A stretch of DNA of 64,000 nucleotides, taken from assembly GCA_965215005.1 (NCBI GenBank), contig CBDCCZ010000054.1, positions 160,001 to 224,000 on the forward strand, read 5' to 3'. Shown here in pieces: positions 2,578 to 62,743 of the stretch (position 1 is the first letter of the stretch; every line of letters begins with the position of its first letter). The stretch comes from Kofleriaceae bacterium. GTDB taxonomy: Bacteria; Myxococcota_A; Polyangia; Haliangiales; Haliangiaceae. Below the pieces are notes generated by a model, which worked only from the letters and a program-made list of their open reading frames with translations, ran no database searches and had not been told where the DNA came from. The translations under genes and the position numbers were made by a program.

Positions 2578-3035
2578 GCAACCTCGGAACACGCGCCCCA
2601 CATGCCACGGCCTTCCGAGCGGGCTCGCGCCTCGAGGCCGACGAACTCCTCGCCGCGATCGCTGCCATTGGGCGGAATCGACAGCGAACAAGCAAGTCCT
2701 TCGTCGACCAGGGTGCGATTGATGTCGACGTCGGTGCGGCGCACGTAGGCCAGCAGCCGATCGTAGTCGTCGCGGCACTCGAGGTCGTAACTGAGCTCGA
2801 CGCGCTGGCCAAGCACCAGCTCAGCGTTGCGATCGCGCGCTTCGGGGGCATAGCAGTCGCCGCGCGACAACTCGGGGGTATCGATGAGCAGATAGCGAAC
2901 CCGCTCACCACTGTCGAGGTCGATGGTGTCGCCGTCGACCACCGCGATCACGATAGCCGAGCTAGGTCCGCAGCTTTCCTCGACCAAGTCGCAACCGCAG
3001 ATAGAAACTAGGACGAGGAGCCATAGGTGCTTCAT
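2565..3035 (-). CDS. Thermonuclease (SNase) family lipoprotein
   Basis: MKHLWLLVLVSICGC lipoprotein signal; VVDGDT, VRYLLIDTPE, DDYDRLLAYV, EARARSEGRGMW motifs; ATG overlaps the upstream stop. Confidence 0.9.
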   Translation of the reverse strand: MKHLWLLVLVSICGCDLVEESCGPSSAIVIAVVDGDTIDLDSGERVRYLLIDTPELSRGDCYAPEARDRNAELVLGQRVELSYDLECRDDYDRLLAYVRRTDVDINRTLVDEGLACSLSIPPNGSDRGEEFVGLEARARSEGRGMWGACSEVACAQ

Positions 3036-4744
3036 GGCAGGCACGCGTCGTTGGGGGCACCGGGGGTGCCGAAGTTGGGGGTGGGGGTGGTGCCGGTGGT
3101 GCCGTAGGAACGCGTCGTCGGGCTGTTGCAAGTCTGCTCTAAGTCTTGCGGGTCGCGTCCCACCGCGACGCCGTCAGCGAGCGCGGCGCCCGCTGCAGGA
3201 TAGGTGAGCGTGTCGAGCACCACCCCGGCTATTGCGATGCTCACGGCACCGCCGCCATTGGGCAGGGTGAGCTCGAGGAGCGCATCGAGCTCGGTGAGCA
3301 TGCCGTTGACCGTTGCATCTGCCGAGCGCACGAGCAGCGCGAGCGCGCTTGGGCCTTCGGCGCTGAGCGATAGGCAACGGGTCGATACCAGCTGCTGACA
3401 GAGCGCCGACCCATCGCAGGCAACGTCGAGATCACGCCGCAGCTCGATCCCATTTAGATCAAAGGTGCCTGCGACGGCGCGAAGCTCGACCCACTCCGCG
3501 ACGCCATCGGCACCGCTGCCTGCCGGGTCGGCCATGAGCTCGTTGACCACGAGCTCGCCGGCGCGCGGCGCGATGATGGCGCGGGTTGCACCGAGGCCGT
3601 CATCGAAACATTCGTCGTCGCCAATCTGCGCCGGACATGGAGGATTGGCCGCGCCCGGGGTGCCGAGGTCGCCAGCGCCATAGGCGGCTTGGCCGGGGCA
3701 CCAGCGCGCCTGATCGTCGTTGGCGCTGGGGGTCATCGCCTCGGGATCGAGGCTGCGCGAGGCGCCGCTTGGCACGCTCGGCCAGCTCACCTCGTCGAGC
3801 ACGAGGTCGCCGAGGCCGATGAACAGACGGCCGCTGCTGTTGGTCAAGCCGAAGTCGAACAGGAAGTCGGGGCTGGGGAGCTCGCCGTTGTCGCTGGGCG
3901 TCATCGACCGCGCGAACACCAAGTGGGTTCCGGCGCTCACCCGCAGGCACTCCATGGCGTTCCATCCGGCGTCGACCTCGGCGCGACCGGCGACCAAACC
4001 ATTGAGATCGACGTCGCGGGCGACGAACACCTCGAACCACTCGCCGCTATCGTCGCTGGAGGCTTCGGGATTTGCCATGAGCTCGGTGATCACCAAATCG
4101 CCGACCGTGGGGCTGATGAGGGCCCTAGCGATGCCATCGTCGGTGCACTCGGTGGGCACGCCGCCTACGCACGCGGGGTTGGCGGTGCCGGGCGAGCCGA
4201 GGTTGCCGGTGGCGTCGTAAGAGGCGGTGGCGGGGCACCAGTTGGCGCGATCGTCGTTGGCGCTCGCATTGGGGGCAATGGCGCCGTCGAGACCTTGGGC
4301 GATGCCATCGGCCATGTCGGCGTAGACGACAGCATCGACCTCGACCTCGCCGCAGCGAAGCAGCAACTTGCCGTCGCGATTGTTCAAGCTGCCGAGGTCG
4401 GAGCCATAGCCGTAGTCGACGTGAGCGGGCGCTAGCTCCGGCAGGACGCCGCCGAGCACGCGATACTCGCCGGGCTCGATAGCCAATCCCTCGATGCGAT
4501 GCGTCTGTTCATCGAGCCCGTCGGACTCAGCCGCGACCACGGACAATCTGCTGAGGTCGATCGCCGCGTCACTCGCGTTGTAGATCTCGAGCCACTCGAG
4601 GCCATCGTCGTCGCCATCGGGATTGGCGAGGACCTCGGTGATGATGAGAGCTCCCGCCGCGATGGAGGTGCACGGCGGCAGCTCGGCAGCTTCTTGCGAG
4701 CCGCACGCGGCGAGACATACGACCGCGAGGACGATGCGTGTCAT
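3032..4744 (-). CDS. Lipoprotein with three lamin-tail (LTD) domains
   Basis: LAAC lipobox; three repeats of (I/V)(T/N)E(V/L)(L/M)A(N/D)P...EW(L/F/V)E...G(S/T)PGxxN. Confidence 0.85.
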   Translation of the reverse strand: MTRIVLAVVCLAACGSQEAAELPPCTSIAAGALIITEVLANPDGDDDGLEWLEIYNASDAAIDLSRLSVVAAESDGLDEQTHRIEGLAIEPGEYRVLGGVLPELAPAHVDYGYGSDLGSLNNRDGKLLLRCGEVEVDAVVYADMADGIAQGLDGAIAPNASANDDRANWCPATASYDATGNLGSPGTANPACVGGVPTECTDDGIARALISPTVGDLVITELMANPEASSDDSGEWFEVFVARDVDLNGLVAGRAEVDAGWNAMECLRVSAGTHLVFARSMTPSDNGELPSPDFLFDFGLTNSSGRLFIGLGDLVLDEVSWPSVPSGASRSLDPEAMTPSANDDQARWCPGQAAYGAGDLGTPGAANPPCPAQIGDDECFDDGLGATRAIIAPRAGELVVNELMADPAGSGADGVAEWVELRAVAGTFDLNGIELRRDLDVACDGSALCQQLVSTRCLSLSAEGPSALALLVRSADATVNGMLTELDALLELTLPNGGGAVSIAIAGVVLDTLTYPAAGAALADGVAVGRDPQDLEQTCNSPTTRSYGTTGTTPTPNFGTPGAPNDACLP

Positions 4745-5874
4745 AGAGACTCCTCCGCCTTTGGCAGCCCGGGCACCTTCTCGGAGCCGGAAATCTGGCC
4801 AGGTCGATCGACGACGATTTGCAGCACGCGGCGCTTCTTGCGCCGGTCCTCATACTCGCTCACGAAGCCGCGTACGACGATGTATTCGCCGTCGAAGCGG
4901 GCGATGTTGCTGGTGCCGAATACGTCTTTGTCGAAGAAAATCAGCGGAAAATCGTTGAACATGCGCCGACTGAGCAACACGCGCGTAGGGCCGCGATCGC
5001 CGAGACGTATCGCACCCACGGAGCCGAGCAACGTCACTTCTTTGCCGAGGTGCTGCTCGAGCCGAGCGATGGCGTCCCAGTTGGTCAGCGCGATGTGGTC
5101 GGCTTTGTCGCCAGCGGACGCTTCGAAGGCCGCGATGAAGTCGGCTCGCGCGTTCCACCACGCGGTGCGCTCGTCGTAGTCGGGGTAGTGCCGCTTGGCT
5201 GGGTCCCAAATTCCGAGCTGCTGCTTCCGCGCTTCGGCCTCGGCGGCGACGAACTCGTCGTGAAACCGGCGCGAGTAGCCATACTTGGTGAAGTACGGGC
5301 TCATGCCGGCACGCACGGCTTCGACGTTGTAGTTGCGCCAGCGGCCGTCTTTGAACGCGAACACGTAGGCAAGGTAGCGGCCATAGCGGCCGCGAATCTC
5401 TTTGGGATGATCGCGCTCGAGGCGAACCCGCTCGACGCCCGCGAAGAACGCCTTGGCGAATTGTTTTGCCTCTTCCCCTAGCGGCGTTGCGTACTTGGCG
5501 GGACGCAGGCGCTCGCCGCGCTGCGCGACCCGGTACCCCGCCCAGTCCGCTTCGACGGCGCGGCGATCTTTTTCCTTCTTGAAGGTCTCTTCGGTGTCGA
5601 TCGCGAGCAATCGCAGCGTCGTGTCGAGCCCTTCTACTTTCAACGTGTCGCCGTCGACTACGCCATCGGAGGCCAGCGCCATCTCGCCGAGCAAAAGCTC
5701 TGGCGACTCCAGCGTCGCCAGGGTCTCTTGGGCGTCTTCTCGAGCGTAACGGCGAGCCTCTGCAGCGCCGCCGCAACCGCCGCTGCAACTGCCGCTGACT
5801 GCTACGACGAGCGCGCCGAGGACCGCACTAGGCAGCCACGGAACGGTGCGTTTGGGCGCTAAAGGAGGTCGCAT
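4741..5874 (-). CDS. Thermonuclease family secreted/lipoprotein with probable C-terminal OB-fold
   Basis: VVDGDTL, LRLLAIDTEE, RYGRYLAYV, AEAEARKQQLGIW; C-terminal GKEVTLLGSV...IVVRGFVSEY...LQIVVDRPGQI resembles an OB fold. Confidence 0.85.
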   Translation of the reverse strand: MRPPLAPKRTVPWLPSAVLGALVVAVSGSCSGGCGGAAEARRYAREDAQETLATLESPELLLGEMALASDGVVDGDTLKVEGLDTTLRLLAIDTEETFKKEKDRRAVEADWAGYRVAQRGERLRPAKYATPLGEEAKQFAKAFFAGVERVRLERDHPKEIRGRYGRYLAYVFAFKDGRWRNYNVEAVRAGMSPYFTKYGYSRRFHDEFVAAEAEARKQQLGIWDPAKRHYPDYDERTAWWNARADFIAAFEASAGDKADHIALTNWDAIARLEQHLGKEVTLLGSVGAIRLGDRGPTRVLLSRRMFNDFPLIFFDKDVFGTSNIARFDGEYIVVRGFVSEYEDRRKKRRVLQIVVDRPGQISGSEKVPGLPKAEESL

Positions 5875-6479
5875 GCTGGATTTGCCTCGCCAGGCGTGCC
5901 GGGCACGCCGAGGTGAATGGTGTCGCTGGGGTCGCGGCGGTTATCGACGCACCAGCGCGACTCGTCGTCATTGGCATCGGCCGCCGGCTCGGCGGCACCA
6001 TCGAGCGCTAGGCTGCCGGTGCGCGGCAGGCTGCGATAGACGATGCGGTCGATGCGCTCGCCGCATGCGATGGCGGTGACGGCGGCGCTGCTGTAGAGGC
6101 TGCGATCGAAGTCGGGCAAAAACGCGTAGGAAACGTGGGGAGGGCGCGTGGCGCGGCGCTGGCGACCTAACACCGCATAGCTGTCAGCCATCACCAGCAG
6201 CTGCTCGCGCACGAGGATGCGCGCCTGCTCAGTGCCATCGAGCTTCATGATCTCGACGGTGAGACCGCGCAGATCAATATCACTGCCGCTGGCGTTGTAG
6301 AGCTCGAGCCACTCGCCCCAGGTATCGCTGCCGCTTTGCGGGCCACGCACCTCGGTAATCACCAGCTCGCCCGGGGCGAGCTCCGGGCAAATCGGCGCGA
6401 GCGGCTCGCGAGCACAGCCGCCGGCGACGACCAGCCCTGAGACGGCGACAACCGCCCACGCACCTAGACTCGCAACCAC
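5859..6479 (-). CDS. Lamin-tail domain lipoprotein
   Basis: GTG 6479 follows TATGTT; hydrophobic signal ending AGGC; LVITEV...EWLELYN...GTPGEANP. Confidence 0.8.
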   Translation of the reverse strand: MVASLGAWAVVAVSGLVVAGGCAREPLAPICPELAPGELVITEVRGPQSGSDTWGEWLELYNASGSDIDLRGLTVEIMKLDGTEQARILVREQLLVMADSYAVLGRQRRATRPPHVSYAFLPDFDRSLYSSAAVTAIACGERIDRIVYRSLPRTGSLALDGAAEPAADANDDESRWCVDNRRDPSDTIHLGVPGTPGEANPACDLL

Positions 6480-6652
6480 GGCCGGGCAACATACCCTGGT
6501 GCACGCCGTGCGCGGCTGTAAGCCCGGCAACAACTCGATGACAATCCATTCACCGCGGGCGACCTTGCTCGGCTCGAGGTCGCAGATTCGCGCCGCGGGC
6601 GGTGCGAAGGTCAGCTCAGGCGAGCGCCAAGTCATGGGGTAAGGTGCCGTCG

Positions 6653-22278: not shown

Positions 22279-23265
22279 TCATGGACTAGCAGCGAGGGCT
22301 TCGGTGGCGCGCGCCAAGCGCTCGCGCATCGCCACCTTGGCTTCCTCGGGGCCGACGATCCAGGCGTGGCGGCCAAAGCCGAGGACCCAGCCGGTGACCC
22401 ACTCCAGGCCCTCGCAGTCGATGAGAATCTCGGCGCTGCCGTCCTCGTGCAGCGTGACCTCGCCGACCGGCCAGCCGGTGGCACCCACCCGGGTCGTTGC
22501 CAACGGATCGAGATGGACCTGCACCGAGGTGGCATCGGCCGACGGCACGTAGAGCTGCTCGCGGCGATAGGACTCGAGATCGAAGCCTGTAGGGGGTGTA
22601 AAGCGCTCGCTGGTGAGCTCGAGGTCGGCGATGCGATCGATGCGGAACGTGCGAGTGTCGCCGCGCTTGTGGCAATGGCCGATGACGTACCATTCGCCGG
22701 CGTGGTGCACGAGGCCGTACGGATCGAGACGGCGACGCTCGGCTTTGTGGCGCGAGGCGGCGACGTAATCGAGCTCGACGCGGCGATGCTCGCGCGCCGC
22801 GGTGACGAGTTGCCGTAAGAACCGCGCCACCACGCGATCGGGCTCGGCAACCACGGTGTCAGAAGCGAGGCTTTCGGCCGCATCGGCATCGCGTCCCATC
22901 GCGCGGAGGAGCTTGCGCTCGGCAGACTCGAGTGCCTCGTCATACGGCGCCACGCCGCTCTCGCGAAGCGCGCGAATGCCGAGCAGGAGCGAGCAACCTT
23001 CGGCCGGCGTGAGCCGAAGCGGGCGCGTAAGGCGCTGCGGCAGCTCGACGTAGACGCGCCCGTCTTCGACCGAAACCAGCAGATATTCGCCGGGATCGCC
23101 ATCGGGCGGGCCGACTTGAGAGAGAAGGTCTAGATCTTTGAGCAGCGCTTCGCGATCGACTCCGACGAGCTCGGCCAGATCCTCGACCGCGACGCCGTCG
23201 GGATGTTTGGCCACGTACGGCACGATGTACAGCAGACGGCGAAGCTTCTGCCCAACGTCCCTCAC
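22279..23265 (-). CDS. pafC: HTH-WYL transcriptional regulator, PafC-like
   Basis: RRLLYIVPYV...LLKDLDLL...GPPDGDPGE, RPLRLTPAE, WYVIGHC, RTFRIDRI; GTGA coupling to upstream gene. Confidence 0.8.
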   Translation of the reverse strand: MRDVGQKLRRLLYIVPYVAKHPDGVAVEDLAELVGVDREALLKDLDLLSQVGPPDGDPGEYLLVSVEDGRVYVELPQRLTRPLRLTPAEGCSLLLGIRALRESGVAPYDEALESAERKLLRAMGRDADAAESLASDTVVAEPDRVVARFLRQLVTAAREHRRVELDYVAASRHKAERRRLDPYGLVHHAGEWYVIGHCHKRGDTRTFRIDRIADLELTSERFTPPTGFDLESYRREQLYVPSADATSVQVHLDPLATTRVGATGWPVGEVTLHEDGSAEILIDCEGLEWVTGWVLGFGRHAWIVGPEEAKVAMRERLARATEALAASP

Positions 23266-24338
23266 CAAGCGTATCTCTCCTGAATCGCCGCGAGCTCCTC
23301 GCCGAGCCGTTGCCGCAGCCGCGGCCCTTCTAGCACCCGAATGGCACCTTTGGCCGCTAGCACTCGTGACACTGCAAAATCGGTGTTGGCGCACGAGAAC
23401 CGCACCACGGTCCGGTCGCCGTCGCGGGTGAGCTCGGCGTCGGCACCAAACTCTTCGTTGGCGACATCGGCGGCATCGGGCCCAATTTCGAGCGCCACGG
23501 TTTCCATGGGTTCGTTGTGGAAGGTCCACGGCGAGCGGTTGGCGTAGCTGCGGACGTCAAAGTCCCGAGGACGTTCGAAATCGGGCGACTTGGGCTTGGG
23601 CGCGCTCTCGAGCTCGAGGATTCGGTCGACTCGAAACGAGCGAACGTCGCGGCGCATGTGACAGTGGCCGACGAGTAGCCACGCACCTTGGCGATACACC
23701 AAGCCGTAGGGATCGAGCTCGCGCTGCGAGACCATGGCTGTCGAGGCGTTTTGATACTTAATGGTGAGGCGCTTGCGATTGCGGGTTGCCGCTTCGAGCT
23801 GGCTGAAGCGGTCGCTCAAGATGCGGGTGTCGGCGATGCGGACCTCGGGGAAATGCACCAGGACCGGCGCCAGCGAGGTCGGCGGCGGAAACTCGGTAGG
23901 CGTGTCGGGTGGCTCGGGAACATCGAAGGCGAGCTTGCGGAGCGCCAAGTCGACGATCTTTGGATAGCTGCCGCCCGGCGCCGCTCGCGCCACCGAAGCC
24001 GCGAGCACCAACGCCGAGACCTCATCGGCGTTGAGGTGGACCTCGGGCATGCGGAACCGACCCAAGTCGATGACGTAGCCGCCTTCTTCGACCGCGTCGT
24101 CTTCTTCCGGGGTGACGTACCGGATCGGAACCCCGAGCTCGAGGAGGTCGGACTTGTCGCGCTCGAACGCCCGCAGGCCGGCTTCGACGTTGGCGGTTTG
24201 GTAGGCGGTGAACTGGTCGCGAATGTCGCGGAAGGTGACCGGTGAGCGCGCTCGAAGGAGCAGCATCACGAGGTCGAGCAGGCGCTTGGACCTATCACCG
24301 CGTGCGGCGGACTTGGCTTTGCTAGTGGCTTTGGTCAA
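23262..24338 (-). CDS. pafB: HTH-WYL transcriptional regulator, PafB-like
   Basis: RLLDLVMLLL...RAFERDKSDLLELGVPI (PafB-type FERDK), WLLVGHC, RSFRVDRI; AGGAG before TTG 24338. Confidence 0.8.
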   Translation of the reverse strand: MTKATSKAKSAARGDRSKRLLDLVMLLLRARSPVTFRDIRDQFTAYQTANVEAGLRAFERDKSDLLELGVPIRYVTPEEDDAVEEGGYVIDLGRFRMPEVHLNADEVSALVLAASVARAAPGGSYPKIVDLALRKLAFDVPEPPDTPTEFPPPTSLAPVLVHFPEVRIADTRILSDRFSQLEAATRNRKRLTIKYQNASTAMVSQRELDPYGLVYRQGAWLLVGHCHMRRDVRSFRVDRILELESAPKPKSPDFERPRDFDVRSYANRSPWTFHNEPMETVALEIGPDAADVANEEFGADAELTRDGDRTVVRFSCANTDFAVSRVLAAKGAIRVLEGPRLRQRLGEELAAIQERYAW

Positions 24339-24535
24339 ACCCGAGCTCCTGGGGGCATCGTATCGCGATGGCCACGCCGGTGGCAGGCGGCGCGGGCGGC
24401 ATCGATAATCCGGAGCCGAGGCCGCCACCAATGCCGCCAGTGTAGCGGCCGATCGCCGGGTGAGCTAGGGCGCGAAGCCGCGGGACCGCGGTCCGAAAGA
24501 TGACCTCGCGCGGGGGCGCGTGTAGCGTTGCCGCC

Positions 24536-36942: not shown

Positions 36943-37000
36943 GTCCGGCGTGTCGGACGCGGGCGTCCGAGTGGCCGGACGCGCGTCCGCTCGAGCGGAC
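36943..37000. promoter_or_regulatory. Three tandem GTCC-N8-GGAC palindromes
   Basis: Boxes at 36943-36958, 36965-36980 and 36985-37000. Confidence 0.75.
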
Positions 37001-59279: not shown

Positions 59280-60446
59280 CTAAGGAGCGTGCGTGCGCGG
59301 CCGATCGCTAGCCGGCGGATGCACGCGCCGGGGCGGTGGATTGCCGGCGCTGTCGCGTGGCGCAGGCGGTGGCGCGGCTCGCCGCGGCGTGTTGGAAGGC
59401 GCCGACTGGCCGGACGTGTTGGGCCGCGACGGCGGCGGTGGGGCGGTGCGCCGCGGCGGCGCCTGCGGCGTGTTGGGCCGTGACGGCGGCGGCGCAGCGC
59501 GACCCGGACTCCGCGGCGGAGTGGTGGTGCGCGGCGGCGGTGCGCTCGGCGTGTTGGGCCGTGACGGCGGCGGCGCCGTGCGGCCCGGACTCCGCGGCGG
59601 GGTGGTGGTGCGCGGCGGTGGTGCGCTCGGCGTGTTGGGCCGCGACGGCGGCGGCGCGGTCTGCCCCGGTCCCCGCGGCGGGGTGGTGGTGCGCGGCGGC
59701 GGTGCGCTCGGCGTGTTGGGCCGCGACGGCGGCGGCGCGGTCTGCCCCGGTCCCCGCGGCGGGGTGGTGGTGCGCGGCGGCGGTGCACCCGGCGTGCTGG
59801 GCCGCGACGGCGGCGTTTGCCCCCGCACTGGCGGCTGCGGGCGATACACCGGTTGCCGTGGCGGCGTGTACGTCGGGCGTTGACGCGGGGGCGTATAGGT
59901 TCGCGCCGGCGGCCGCTGCGGGTCATGCGTCGGCGGCTGCCGATAGCGCCCGTAGTTCGATGGAACTCGCTCATTGCCGCGCGGTCGATACCCCGTGGTG
60001 GGGCGTCCGCTACGGTGATCGCGAATGGTCACGCCGCTGGGAACCCGGTTGCGATGCGACCAATAGCCCGAGTGATAGACGTAGGCGCTGCCGTTATAGT
60101 TGTAGTAGGGCTGGATATAGACGTAGTCGGAGCGGTCTTGCACCCAACGGCCGCCAACCCAAACCCACTCATAGCCGTTCCAGTGCCAGTAGCCGTCGAT
60201 CCACACATAGCCGTAGCCGGGCGAGGCCGTGACCTCTTCATAAAGTGGCTCGGGCGGATAACTTTCCACGTTCAGCGTTGTGGGGCTGCCCACGGCGACC
60301 GAACCCGAGGCATAGCCGGAGCTTCTGCCGGTCGTGGAGTACCCGCTCGAGGGGCGACTCTCTCGGACGACGCAGCCAGACGCCGTCAGCGTAAAGCCGA
60401 GGCTGGCAAGTCCGAGAAGCGAGACCAGATGTCGCTTCGTAGTCAT
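59280..60446 (-). CDS. YXWGXW/WXXGXW-repeat lipoprotein with long Pro/Arg-rich tail
   Basis: GGAGG RBS; ASGC lipobox; YVWIDGYWHWNGYEWVWVGGRW. Confidence 0.85.
   Translation of the reverse strand: MTTKRHLVSLLGLASLGFTLTASGCVVRESRPSSGYSTTGRSSGYASGSVAVGSPTTLNVESYPPEPLYEEVTASPGYGYVWIDGYWHWNGYEWVWVGGRWVQDRSDYVYIQPYYNYNGSAYVYHSGYWSHRNRVPSGVTIRDHRSGRPTTGYRPRGNERVPSNYGRYRQPPTHDPQRPPARTYTPPRQRPTYTPPRQPVYRPQPPVRGQTPPSRPSTPGAPPPRTTTPPRGPGQTAPPPSRPNTPSAPPPRTTTPPRGPGQTAPPPSRPNTPSAPPPRTTTPPRSPGRTAPPPSRPNTPSAPPPRTTTPPRSPGRAAPPPSRPNTPQAPPRRTAPPPPSRPNTSGQSAPSNTPRRAAPPPAPRDSAGNPPPRRVHPPASDRPRTHAP
59416..59815. repeat. 81-bp coding tandem repeat (about 4.3 units plus a partial unit)
   Basis: GTG(T/C)TGGGCCG anchors at 59470, 59551, 59632, 59713, 59794; unit PPPSRPNTPSAPPPRTTTPPR(G/S)PG(Q/R)TA. 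Confidence 0.9.
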
Positions 60447-60470
60447 AGTCGTTCCTCCATGCACGCGGTT

Positions 60471-60498
60471 TTGACGGCGCCGGAGCAGCGTCGATTCA
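60471..60498 (-). promoter_or_regulatory. Possible ECF-type promoter
   Basis: TGAATC-N16-CGTCAA upstream of the RBS of the Pro-rich lipoprotein. Confidence 0.4.
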
Positions 60499-60629
60499 AC
60501 TGTATAGTCCAGCGCAAACGTACGCGCAAAAACTCGGGCTCGCTGCGCTCAGCGCGCACGCCTCGGGGCGGGCGCATCGCGGTCGACGCGTTGCCGCTTC
60601 CATAGCCCATCCGCGGCAGCTTCGCGCGC

Positions 60630-60651
60630 TGTCGGCAGGCTTTGCTATCGT
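60630..60651 (+). promoter_or_regulatory. PafBC/RecA-NDp-type promoter motif upstream of recQ
   Basis: TGTCGG-caggctttgc-TA-tcg-T, 7 nt before ATG 60659. Confidence 0.65.
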
Positions 60652-60658
60652 GGCGGCG

Positions 60659-62743
<2,085 letters not shown>

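Follow-up and report, generated by a model that had tools for sequence, protein, structure and literature searches.

The stretch of DNA analysed here, referred to as the window, spans 64,000 nucleotides of contig CBDCCZ010000054.1 in the assembly GCA_965215005.1 of a Kofleriaceae bacterium (G000:C54:160001-224000, where G000 is the source genome); positions given below without a contig are those of the window. It contains the helicase gene recQ, directly preceded by a short element that matches the promoters controlled in mycobacteria by the PafB and PafC proteins (PafBC), and, about 36 kb away, a pair of genes for PafB-like and PafC-like proteins (Table 1). The source assembly is of the metagenome type (6.2 Mb, 65% G+C, 62 contigs). 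The nearest named relatives of its RecQ come from metagenome-assembled genomes (MAGs) labelled 'Deltaproteobacteria bacterium' (67%) and 'Kofleriaceae bacterium' (63%). Kofleriaceae are placed in Myxococcota, order Haliangiales, and the window also encodes tolQ/R/B-like genes, Ser/Thr kinases and a sigma-54 activator; the host is not an actinobacterium.

The element reads TGTCGGCAGGCTTTGCTATCGT and occupies positions 60630-60651 of the forward strand, followed by 7 nt (GGCGGCG) and by the recQ ATG at 60659-60661, exactly as a preliminary description of this DNA had reported. It consists of TGTCGG (60630-60635), a 10-base spacer and the hexamer TATCGT, which a TG at 60643-60644 turns into an extended -10 element. 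The sequence is an exact match to the 22-nt consensus of the PafBC-dependent (RecA-NDp) promoter, tGTCgg(N10)tA(N3)T, whose 3' part acts as the -10 element; this consensus and the terms '-26 element' and 'sigma adaptation', which the preliminary description had used, appear as such in PMC8635444 and PMC8682763. PafBC promoters have no -35 element at 16-18 nt from the -10, and the same holds at recQ: by inspection no -35-like hexamer lies at this distance (the sequence at 60623-60628 is CGCGCG), and a promoter scan of positions 60400-60720 returned no canonical sigma-70-type -35/-10 promoter. The ATG at 60659 is in frame with a longer listed open reading frame (ORF), GTG 60650..62743, but this GTG is an unlikely start codon because it falls inside the -10 element. 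The product is a RecQ helicase, as previously proposed, with the Pfam domains DEAD (5.8e-25), Helicase_C (8.1e-23), HRDC (2.7e-21) and RecQ_Zn_bind (1.1e-8).

Table 1. Coordinates of the promoter elements, of recQ and of the PafB/PafC-like gene pair
Feature	Position	Strand	Basis or role
-26 element (TGTCGGCA)	60630..60637	+	GTC core 60631-60633 is the part kept in relatives
Extended -10 element TGcTATCGT, hexamer TATCGT at 60646-60651	60643..60651	+	Sequence, relatives' recQ consensus
Predicted transcription start, at the ATG or one base 5' of it	60658..60659	+	Predicted from the 7-nt spacing between -10 and ATG
recQ, 694 aa from ATG 60659	60659..62743	+	ORF and Pfam domains
pafB-like gene, 358 aa from TTG 24338, HTH, WYL and WCX domains	23262..24338	-	Candidate DNA-reading subunit
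pafC-like gene, 328 aa from GTG 23265	22279..23265	-	Candidate sigma-contacting subunit

Taken alone, the recQ site is only mildly improbable by chance, as window shuffles indicate. The pattern TGTCGG-N10-TA-N3-T occurs once in the whole window, both strands included, in agreement with the earlier remark that it was the only exact match among the promoters inspected; the shuffle mean is 0.09, and at least one match appears in 9 of 100 shuffles, so that the chance origin conceded for a lone site was a fair caution. The TGTCRG variant has a shuffle mean of 0.30 per window and a match in 25 of 100 shuffles. Genome-wide (6.2 Mb), there are 13 TGTCRG-type matches, 9 with TGTCGG and 4 with TGTCAG. 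Four of the 9 TGTCGG matches are in promoter position, against a mean of about 1 over 60 letter permutations, among which the true pattern ranks second highest; with TGTCAG, one of four is so placed by the same automatic criterion, which is indistinguishable from its own permutations. By eye, 9 of the 13 strict matches have an ORF start within about 25 nt, and these include recQ, a recJ-like gene and a gene for a DnaQ-like exonuclease. It is placement, together with the conservation described below, that lifts the recQ site above chance.

Conservation of the element at recQ and at other repair genes

A recQ orthologue is present in 61/61 genomes of the order, with protein identities of 56-69%. 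We compared 31 orthologous loci, from 29 genomes of the same order and from the two named MAGs. The exact mycobacterial pattern lies directly 5' of recQ in 8 of the 31, and the relaxed form [T/G]GTC-N12-TA-N3-[T/A] is found within 80 nt of the recQ start in 17, while an eighteenth match, at +5, is doubtful. The start codon follows 6-9 nt after the -10 element in every relative recQ site that was read. In these sites the -10 consensus is cTGcTAgggT, and information is confined to it and to motif positions 0-7, the flanks being unconserved (at most 0.5 bits in the 30 nt upstream). The consensus of the clade is yGTCAGA(c/g)-N8-TA rather than TGTCGG.

No conserved left half-site is present at the recQ sites (at most 0.5 bits over -30..-1), and no CGAC at the recA sites; the motif is thus two-part and non-palindromic. 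This bears on the possibility that the element is a LexA (SOS) operator or a palindromic operator of the DriD/DdaA type of WYL protein. The resemblance of GTCAG to the GTTCAG of the myxobacterial SOS box (PMC9705874) and the GTCG at the end of DriD/DdaA sites (PMC13010146) would speak for it, but GTC is conserved together with a -10-like TA at a constant distance, after which comes the start codon, and the lexA gene of the source genome has its own TTGTTCAG boxes and no GTC-N12-TA motif. Both operators were also compared directly with the site. A LexA operator is an imperfect palindrome ending in GTTCAGS, and the recQ site has neither GTTCAG nor a second half; the DriD/DdaA operator CGAC-N7-GTCG (motif from PMC13010146) would require a left half that is not conserved. 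We consider either kind of operator extremely unlikely. The lexA gene itself (contig C6, match 70278-70469, - strand) has two TTGTTCAG boxes upstream, like the published SOS box of Myxococcus xanthus.

The same block precedes other repair genes in the family genomes, the locus of the source genome included. Counts were made with the regular expression NGTC-N3-N9-TA, which has a background of 3.6e-4 per nt over 1.5 Mb of these loci, corresponding to 0.02 per 56 nt. The motif lies 5' of recA in 24/29 loci, of recJ in 20/28 (all within -60..-5), of mutS in 22/27 (21 within -60..-5), of ruvC in 16/29 (13 at -27..-32) and of uvrD in 12/29, two of the latter being far upstream and probably due to chance. 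Among the five recA misses, ATC replaces GTC in two; three of the 29 recA loci belong to the other recA paralogue, and one of these three has a doubtful match. In several of the ruvC misses, the upstream gene directly precedes ruvC. Three further recJ loci fit the mycobacterial pattern and escape the expression through a T at position 7. In general, the GTC triplet is kept among orthologous promoters, with ATC or no motif at some loci.

Activation would be needed at the recA- and mutS-type sites, given their weak -10 (neither TG nor final T) and their lack of a -35. This is relevant to a further reading, in which the GTC element would be the operator of a repressor seated on the promoter spacer and released after damage. 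The element does overlap the core promoter, a frequent repressor position, and the extended -10 of the recQ type could act without an activator. Nevertheless, the element lacks a second half-site and is short and not palindromic; a repressor would leave the weak recA- and mutS-type promoters without the activation they would need, and the known regulators of matching specificity have so far all been activators. Repression is, in our view, highly improbable.

The element across the source genome

We scanned the source genome with a matrix trained solely on the sites of relatives (17 recQ and 23 recA sites, G000 being excluded). Matches of at least 14 bits numbered 25 outside deep coding sequence (8.3 per Mb) versus 16 inside it (1.7 per Mb). 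The 40 best matches with an ORF start within 60 nt were annotated, and 10 of the top 20 promoter-proximal matches belong to replication or repair genes: UvrD (19.9 bits), RecJ/DHH (18.1), MutS (17.5), the single-stranded-DNA-binding protein SSB (17.1), ImuB/IMS (15.6), RuvC (14.3), RNase H, RNase HII, a 1200-aa DnaE and an RNase_T exonuclease. The top 20 also hold ParA and two IS200-like genes. Ranks 21-40 contain no further repair enzyme; a DNA methylase, a deaminase-domain protein and more IS200-like genes are found there. With a decoy matrix, in which the first eight columns were reversed, repair genes numbered 0 in the top 20 and 1 in the top 40 (a second DnaE-type gene), apart from a match to a fragment of the exonuclease gene. 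The motif therefore marks many repair genes, and the enrichment that the preliminary description had named as supporting evidence is borne out by the 10/20 against the decoy's 0/20.

The recA site of the source genome (15.2 bits) is 136 nt from the start codon and was for this reason left out of the ranked list. Compared with the best scores of 591 random upstream regions (median 1.8, 90th percentile 6.4, 99th percentile 11.1), the recA, uvrD and ruvC sites are all above the 99th percentile. No convincing site was found, on matrix scores, at the second recA, the second recQ-like gene, radC, the pafB-like gene or recD2; at recD2, which had already been said to lack the motif, the best upstream scores are below 0. 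Among the 40 top matches, 14 have the start codon 6-10 nt after the -10, versus 4 of the 40 decoy matches, and the N-termini that follow these starts are usual for their families (e.g., MRILGVDPG for RuvC), which suggests a leaderless layout for most sites.

Could TGTCGG simply be a chance neighbour of a constitutive extended -10 promoter, with no regulatory role? Promoters of the TGn-TAnnnT type can function without a -35 element, exact matches arise in 9 of 100 shuffles, and the strict pattern is not over-represented in the genome. This reading is countered by conservation in relatives: 17 of the 31 orthologous promoters keep GTC and its spacing from the -10 amid unconserved flanks, and the same block recurs at recJ, mutS, recA, ruvC and uvrD far above 0.02 per 56 nt. 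Furthermore, the decoy matrix places no repair gene in its top 20. We judge chance proximity to be very unlikely.

Other genes behind such sites deserve mention. A 517-aa protein with a dCMP/cytidine deaminase domain (C40:51525-53078, - strand) lies behind an exact TGTCGG-N10-TANNNT site, and an Eco57I-like N6 DNA methylase (C10:158282-159976, - strand) behind a weaker one; these may be nucleotide-pool or defence genes of the same regulon. At least four copies of an IS200-like (Y1_Tnp) gene of about 220 aa are preceded by TGTCAGACG (C4:217171, C3:186021, C46:5185 and C17:91974), and at three of these four GAGA replaces the TA of the -10. Two inverted copies of another gene, 6 kb apart, share an identical exact motif (C31:33868, + strand, and C31:39951, - strand). 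Possible explanations are that the regulon has taken in genes of mobile elements or that the element's end contains the motif. As for the recJ-like ORF (C42:59541-60833, - strand), it is 430 aa long with an odd C-terminal tail, and the recJ frames of relatives, about 575-600 aa, align to it only up to residue ~400; the short frame, the tail and the longer relatives suggest a frameshift or an assembly error.

The PafB/PafC-like pair as candidate activator

The two WYL genes of the window overlap by GTGA (23262-23265), shared by the stop of the pafB-like gene and the GTG start of the pafC-like gene. The first protein matches WYL (4.2e-22) and WCX (2.2e-5), the second WYL (3.3e-24), WCX (3.9e-12) and, unlike the first, HTH_PafC (5.8e-27); the locus thus has the make-up of a PafBC pair, namely adjacent HTH-WYL-WCX genes of which the second has a PafC-type HTH. 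Among solved structures, the best relatives of the PafB-like protein are the PafB half of 6sj9 (2.9e-24) and M. smegmatis PafB (7p5x_AY, 2.1e-19), with PafC at only 7e-4. Those of the PafC-like protein are the PafC half of 6sj9 (2.2e-42) and M. smegmatis PafC (7p5x_AX, 6.4e-29, full length), with PafB at 1.7e-11. The similarities are one-to-one and the assignments reciprocal, in keeping with the earlier mention of PafBC-like proteins in the window; they rest on the proteins and do not need the recQ site. The alignment of the PafB-like protein to 7p5x_AY keeps R..FERDK, the equivalents of R46 and R50, although this conservation is of modest weight because the R-x3-R-D pattern is common in this HTH class. 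In the solved complex, PafB R46 and R50 read the two guanines of GTC (PMC8635444).

Neither an SOS-like GTTCAG box nor a GTC-N12-TA motif was seen upstream of the pafB-like gene. A perfect palindrome, GGACCGCGGTCC, lies some 150 nt 5' of the start of this gene, at ~24470-24490 on the - strand. A scan of 58 window ORFs, not extended to the rest of the genome, detected no PafA or proteasome domain; linkage to a pafA/Pup-proteasome operon, which is a feature of the actinobacterial locus and not of the mechanism, is absent among the window ORFs. The source genome has three WYL genes in all, the third at C23:74614-74808. Its rpoD-like primary sigma gene (C47:8564-9937, region 1.2 match 3.7e-14) ends at the contig end within region 2, and regions 3-4 of the primary sigma were not assembled with it.

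We also examined how pair and motif are distributed. A strong HTH_PafC match is present in 59 of 61 genomes of the order (a tally that includes the unpublished genome G058), and in the rest of the phylum (60 genomes) it is strong in 1 and weak in 14. Outside the order, the motif was found at none of 29 recA loci. The clade with the pair is the clade with the motif. Comparisons at a finer scale involve too few genomes for a conclusion: within one genus, the GTC motif is missing at recA both in G002, which has no PafC match, and in G006, which has one, and G005 (1.6 Mb, no PafC) is without the recA motif while G001 (PafC) has it.

On this evidence, the recQ site is probably a PafBC-type core promoter of a DNA-damage regulon, activated by the PafB/PafC-like pair. 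Such a promoter would have, about 26 bp upstream of the transcription start, an element centred on GTC, with a -10 ten bases further downstream and no -35; transcription would begin at or next to the ATG and give a leaderless recQ mRNA. Across the order, the putative regulon would comprise recA, recJ, mutS, uvrD, ruvC, ssb, imuB, a dnaE-type polymerase gene and the genes for RNase HI and HII, along with a DnaQ-like exonuclease gene, IS200-like genes and some others outside repair. Its activator would most likely be a heterodimer of the PafB-like and PafC-like WYL proteins. By analogy with mycobacteria, damage would produce single-stranded DNA (ssDNA), which would be bound by the WYL domains of the heterodimer; the latter would take a place between the promoter and region 4 of the sigma factor in the housekeeping holoenzyme, with PafB reading GTC at -27/-25, PafC holding sigma and sigma region 2 reading the -10. 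The housekeeping RNA polymerase could in this way use promoters without a -35. It is from this analogy that we infer damage induction, ssDNA sensing, the contact with sigma and the role of the pair as reader of the motif.

Several observations weigh against this interpretation. The motif is missing at 14 of the 31 recQ orthologue loci, and the site of the source genome itself departs from the clade consensus, with C instead of A at motif position 7; it scores 15.7 bits on a matrix built from recQ sites only and 6.1 on the recQ and recA matrix, around the 90th percentile of upstream regions. The recA-type -10 (TAcAAc) is without the usual final T. The strict pattern is not over-represented genome-wide, as 13 and 9 matches compare with about 29 (TGTCRG) and 9 (TGTCGG) expected from a rough extrapolation of the window shuffles, and the gene calls in the source genome come from a crude ORF/GC3 heuristic. 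Half of the top 20 matrix matches are not repair genes (among them sucA, a Rieske protein, parA, a phosphoribosyltransferase, an ABC transporter and a TonB receptor). Among the genes that the preliminary description had listed for an upstream scan, one of the two recA paralogues, uvrD and ruvC carry a site in the source genome, but uvrA, uvrC, radA and lexA are without one, and the match at uvrB is partial, with no TA. The compared genomes are kin (from at least 17 genera), so locus counts are not independent, and the co-distribution of pair and motif amounts to a single evolutionary event, because it concerns essentially one clade. Finally, G075, the only strong PafC carrier outside the order, has no motif at either of its recA genes.

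This last genome also fits a reading in which motif and regulon are functional but are read by another factor, such as the third WYL protein of the genome, a DdiA-like XRE regulator or some other activator. Indeed, the link between pair and motif is drawn from sequence and distribution, and in M. xanthus part of the LexA-independent response is under the control of DdiA, which is not a WYL protein (PMC12288472). On the other side, the sequence and geometry of the motif equal those of the sole characterised PafB/PafC heterodimer system with a non-palindromic -26 element, the GTC-reading arginines are kept, and pair and motif occur in the same clade. We hold a different reader to be unlikely, and the PafB/PafC-like heterodimer remains our preferred activator.

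A broader claim would be that this Gram-negative, myxobacteria-like order has a complete PafBC-type sigma adaptation, detached from the Pup-proteasome, with a regulon that is almost entirely leaderless and reaches beyond classical repair; this we rate as about as likely as not. The earlier proposal that the same damage control and the same DNA motif are conserved across phyla is supported as to a conserved motif, a regulon and the gene pair, on which all computational tests made here agree with it, with the reservation that the clade consensus is yGTCAGA(c/g) and not TGTCGG.

Elsewhere in the window, three tandem palindromes GTCCG-N6-CGGAC, 20-22 nt apart, lie at 36943-37000 (+ strand) and end about 58 nt 5' of radC (37058). 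This palindrome type recurs in arrays at two further loci and upstream of the second recA paralogue (C33:18498-18553, C38:160387-160422 and C38:170149), and in relatives GTCCGAATTTCGGAC/TTTCGGAC repeats lie 5' of recQ and of recA2-type genes. The GTCCG-N6-CGGAC palindromes look like a separate regulon. At 3032-6635 (- strand), a cluster of three genes encodes proteins with Lamin-tail and staphylococcal-nuclease domains, which appear to be secreted nucleases, next to a YccV-like gene for a hemimethylated-DNA-binding protein.

Relation to known damage-response systems

The mechanism of PafBC and sigma adaptation has so far been elucidated in mycobacteria only, and the literature treats it as actinobacterial; myxobacteria, for their part, have a documented LexA-independent damage response. 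For M. xanthus, a 2021 study named a LexA-repressed pafB-pafC-cyaA operon and mentioned 'PafBC-binding sequences' (PMC9705874); instances of the motif are not given in the text or supplement examined, and the supplement contains neither 'PafBC' nor 'TGTC'. In the 2025 DdiA paper, the M. xanthus homologues MXAN_1359/1360 increase both in a lexA mutant and after mitomycin C, and were 'not investigated further'; in that mutant RecJ, RecA1, RuvA and UvrA also rise and the pair is up 3.4-fold, and the regulators of the LexA-independent response 'remain to be identified' (PMC12288472). Beyond these two papers and the preprint of the second, a search of titles and the opening lines of abstracts found no literature tying PafBC to myxobacteria. 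The idea of a PafBC system across phyla is thus not wholly new, being already in print in outline; our searches found no publication of the conserved regulon, of its leaderless layout or of the evidence across the clade.

What the present analysis yields is a defined 22-nt promoter type, target genes over at least 17 genera, predicted leaderless starts and a named candidate activator, and a one-line claim of the literature becomes a concrete, testable regulon. If the broader claim made above is true, PafBC-type control would be an old or horizontally mobile module and not an actinobacterial speciality, its regulon would extend to mutS of mismatch repair, to genes of replication and of enzymes acting on RNA:DNA hybrids (a dnaE, ssb, those for RNase HI and HII) and to IS200-like transposase genes, and the missing regulator of the myxobacterial LexA-independent damage response would have been named. 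If confirmed, Gram-negative housekeeping sigma factors could be re-aimed in the same way, and the promoter could serve as a simple marker of damage-inducible genes in uncultured relatives.

The M. xanthus pair MXAN_1359/1360 resembles the present one in being made of wHTH-WYL genes, in belonging to Myxococcota and in its link to the DNA damage response. Its operon has an SOS-like box and is LexA-repressed, whereas no GTTCAG box was seen 5' of the pair described here. The two pairs may not be the same system, because in the phylum sample outside the order the PafC-type HTH matches are weak in all but one genome and the recA motif was not found. The myxobacterial LexA/SOS system likewise controls damage genes, and lexA is present here with GTTCAG-type boxes, but its operator has a different sequence and no fixed link to a -10. 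Several recA1-type promoters of relatives carry GGTTCnGAGTAC 60-70 nt 5' of the GTC element (loci L111, L113, L126, L133, L134 and L283); recA may for this reason be under both LexA and PafBC-type control, as in mycobacteria.

DriD of Caulobacter and DdaA of Acinetobacter are ssDNA-sensing wHTH-WYL-WCX activators of recA, ssb and further repair genes that act independently of LexA, and sensing of ssDNA is also what we propose for the present pair. They differ in being homodimers that bind CGAC-N7-GTCG alone and make other contacts with RNA polymerase, whereas here a single GTC half goes with a PafB/PafC-type pair.

The closest counterpart is the PafBC of mycobacteria and other Actinobacteria. 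The present system differs from it in its Gram-negative, myxobacteria-like host and in having no pafA/Pup-proteasome gene beside the pair; the element is yGTCAGA(c/g), with A where mycobacteria have T, the recA-type -10 lacks the final T, nearly all strong sites are predicted to be leaderless, and mutS, ssb, RNase H and IS200-like genes are among the predicted targets. Both systems share the 22-nt two-part motif with its invariant GTC core, the absence of a -35, the adjacent HTH-WYL-WCX genes with the arginines kept, and sites at recA, ruvC, uvrD, imuB and other repair genes.

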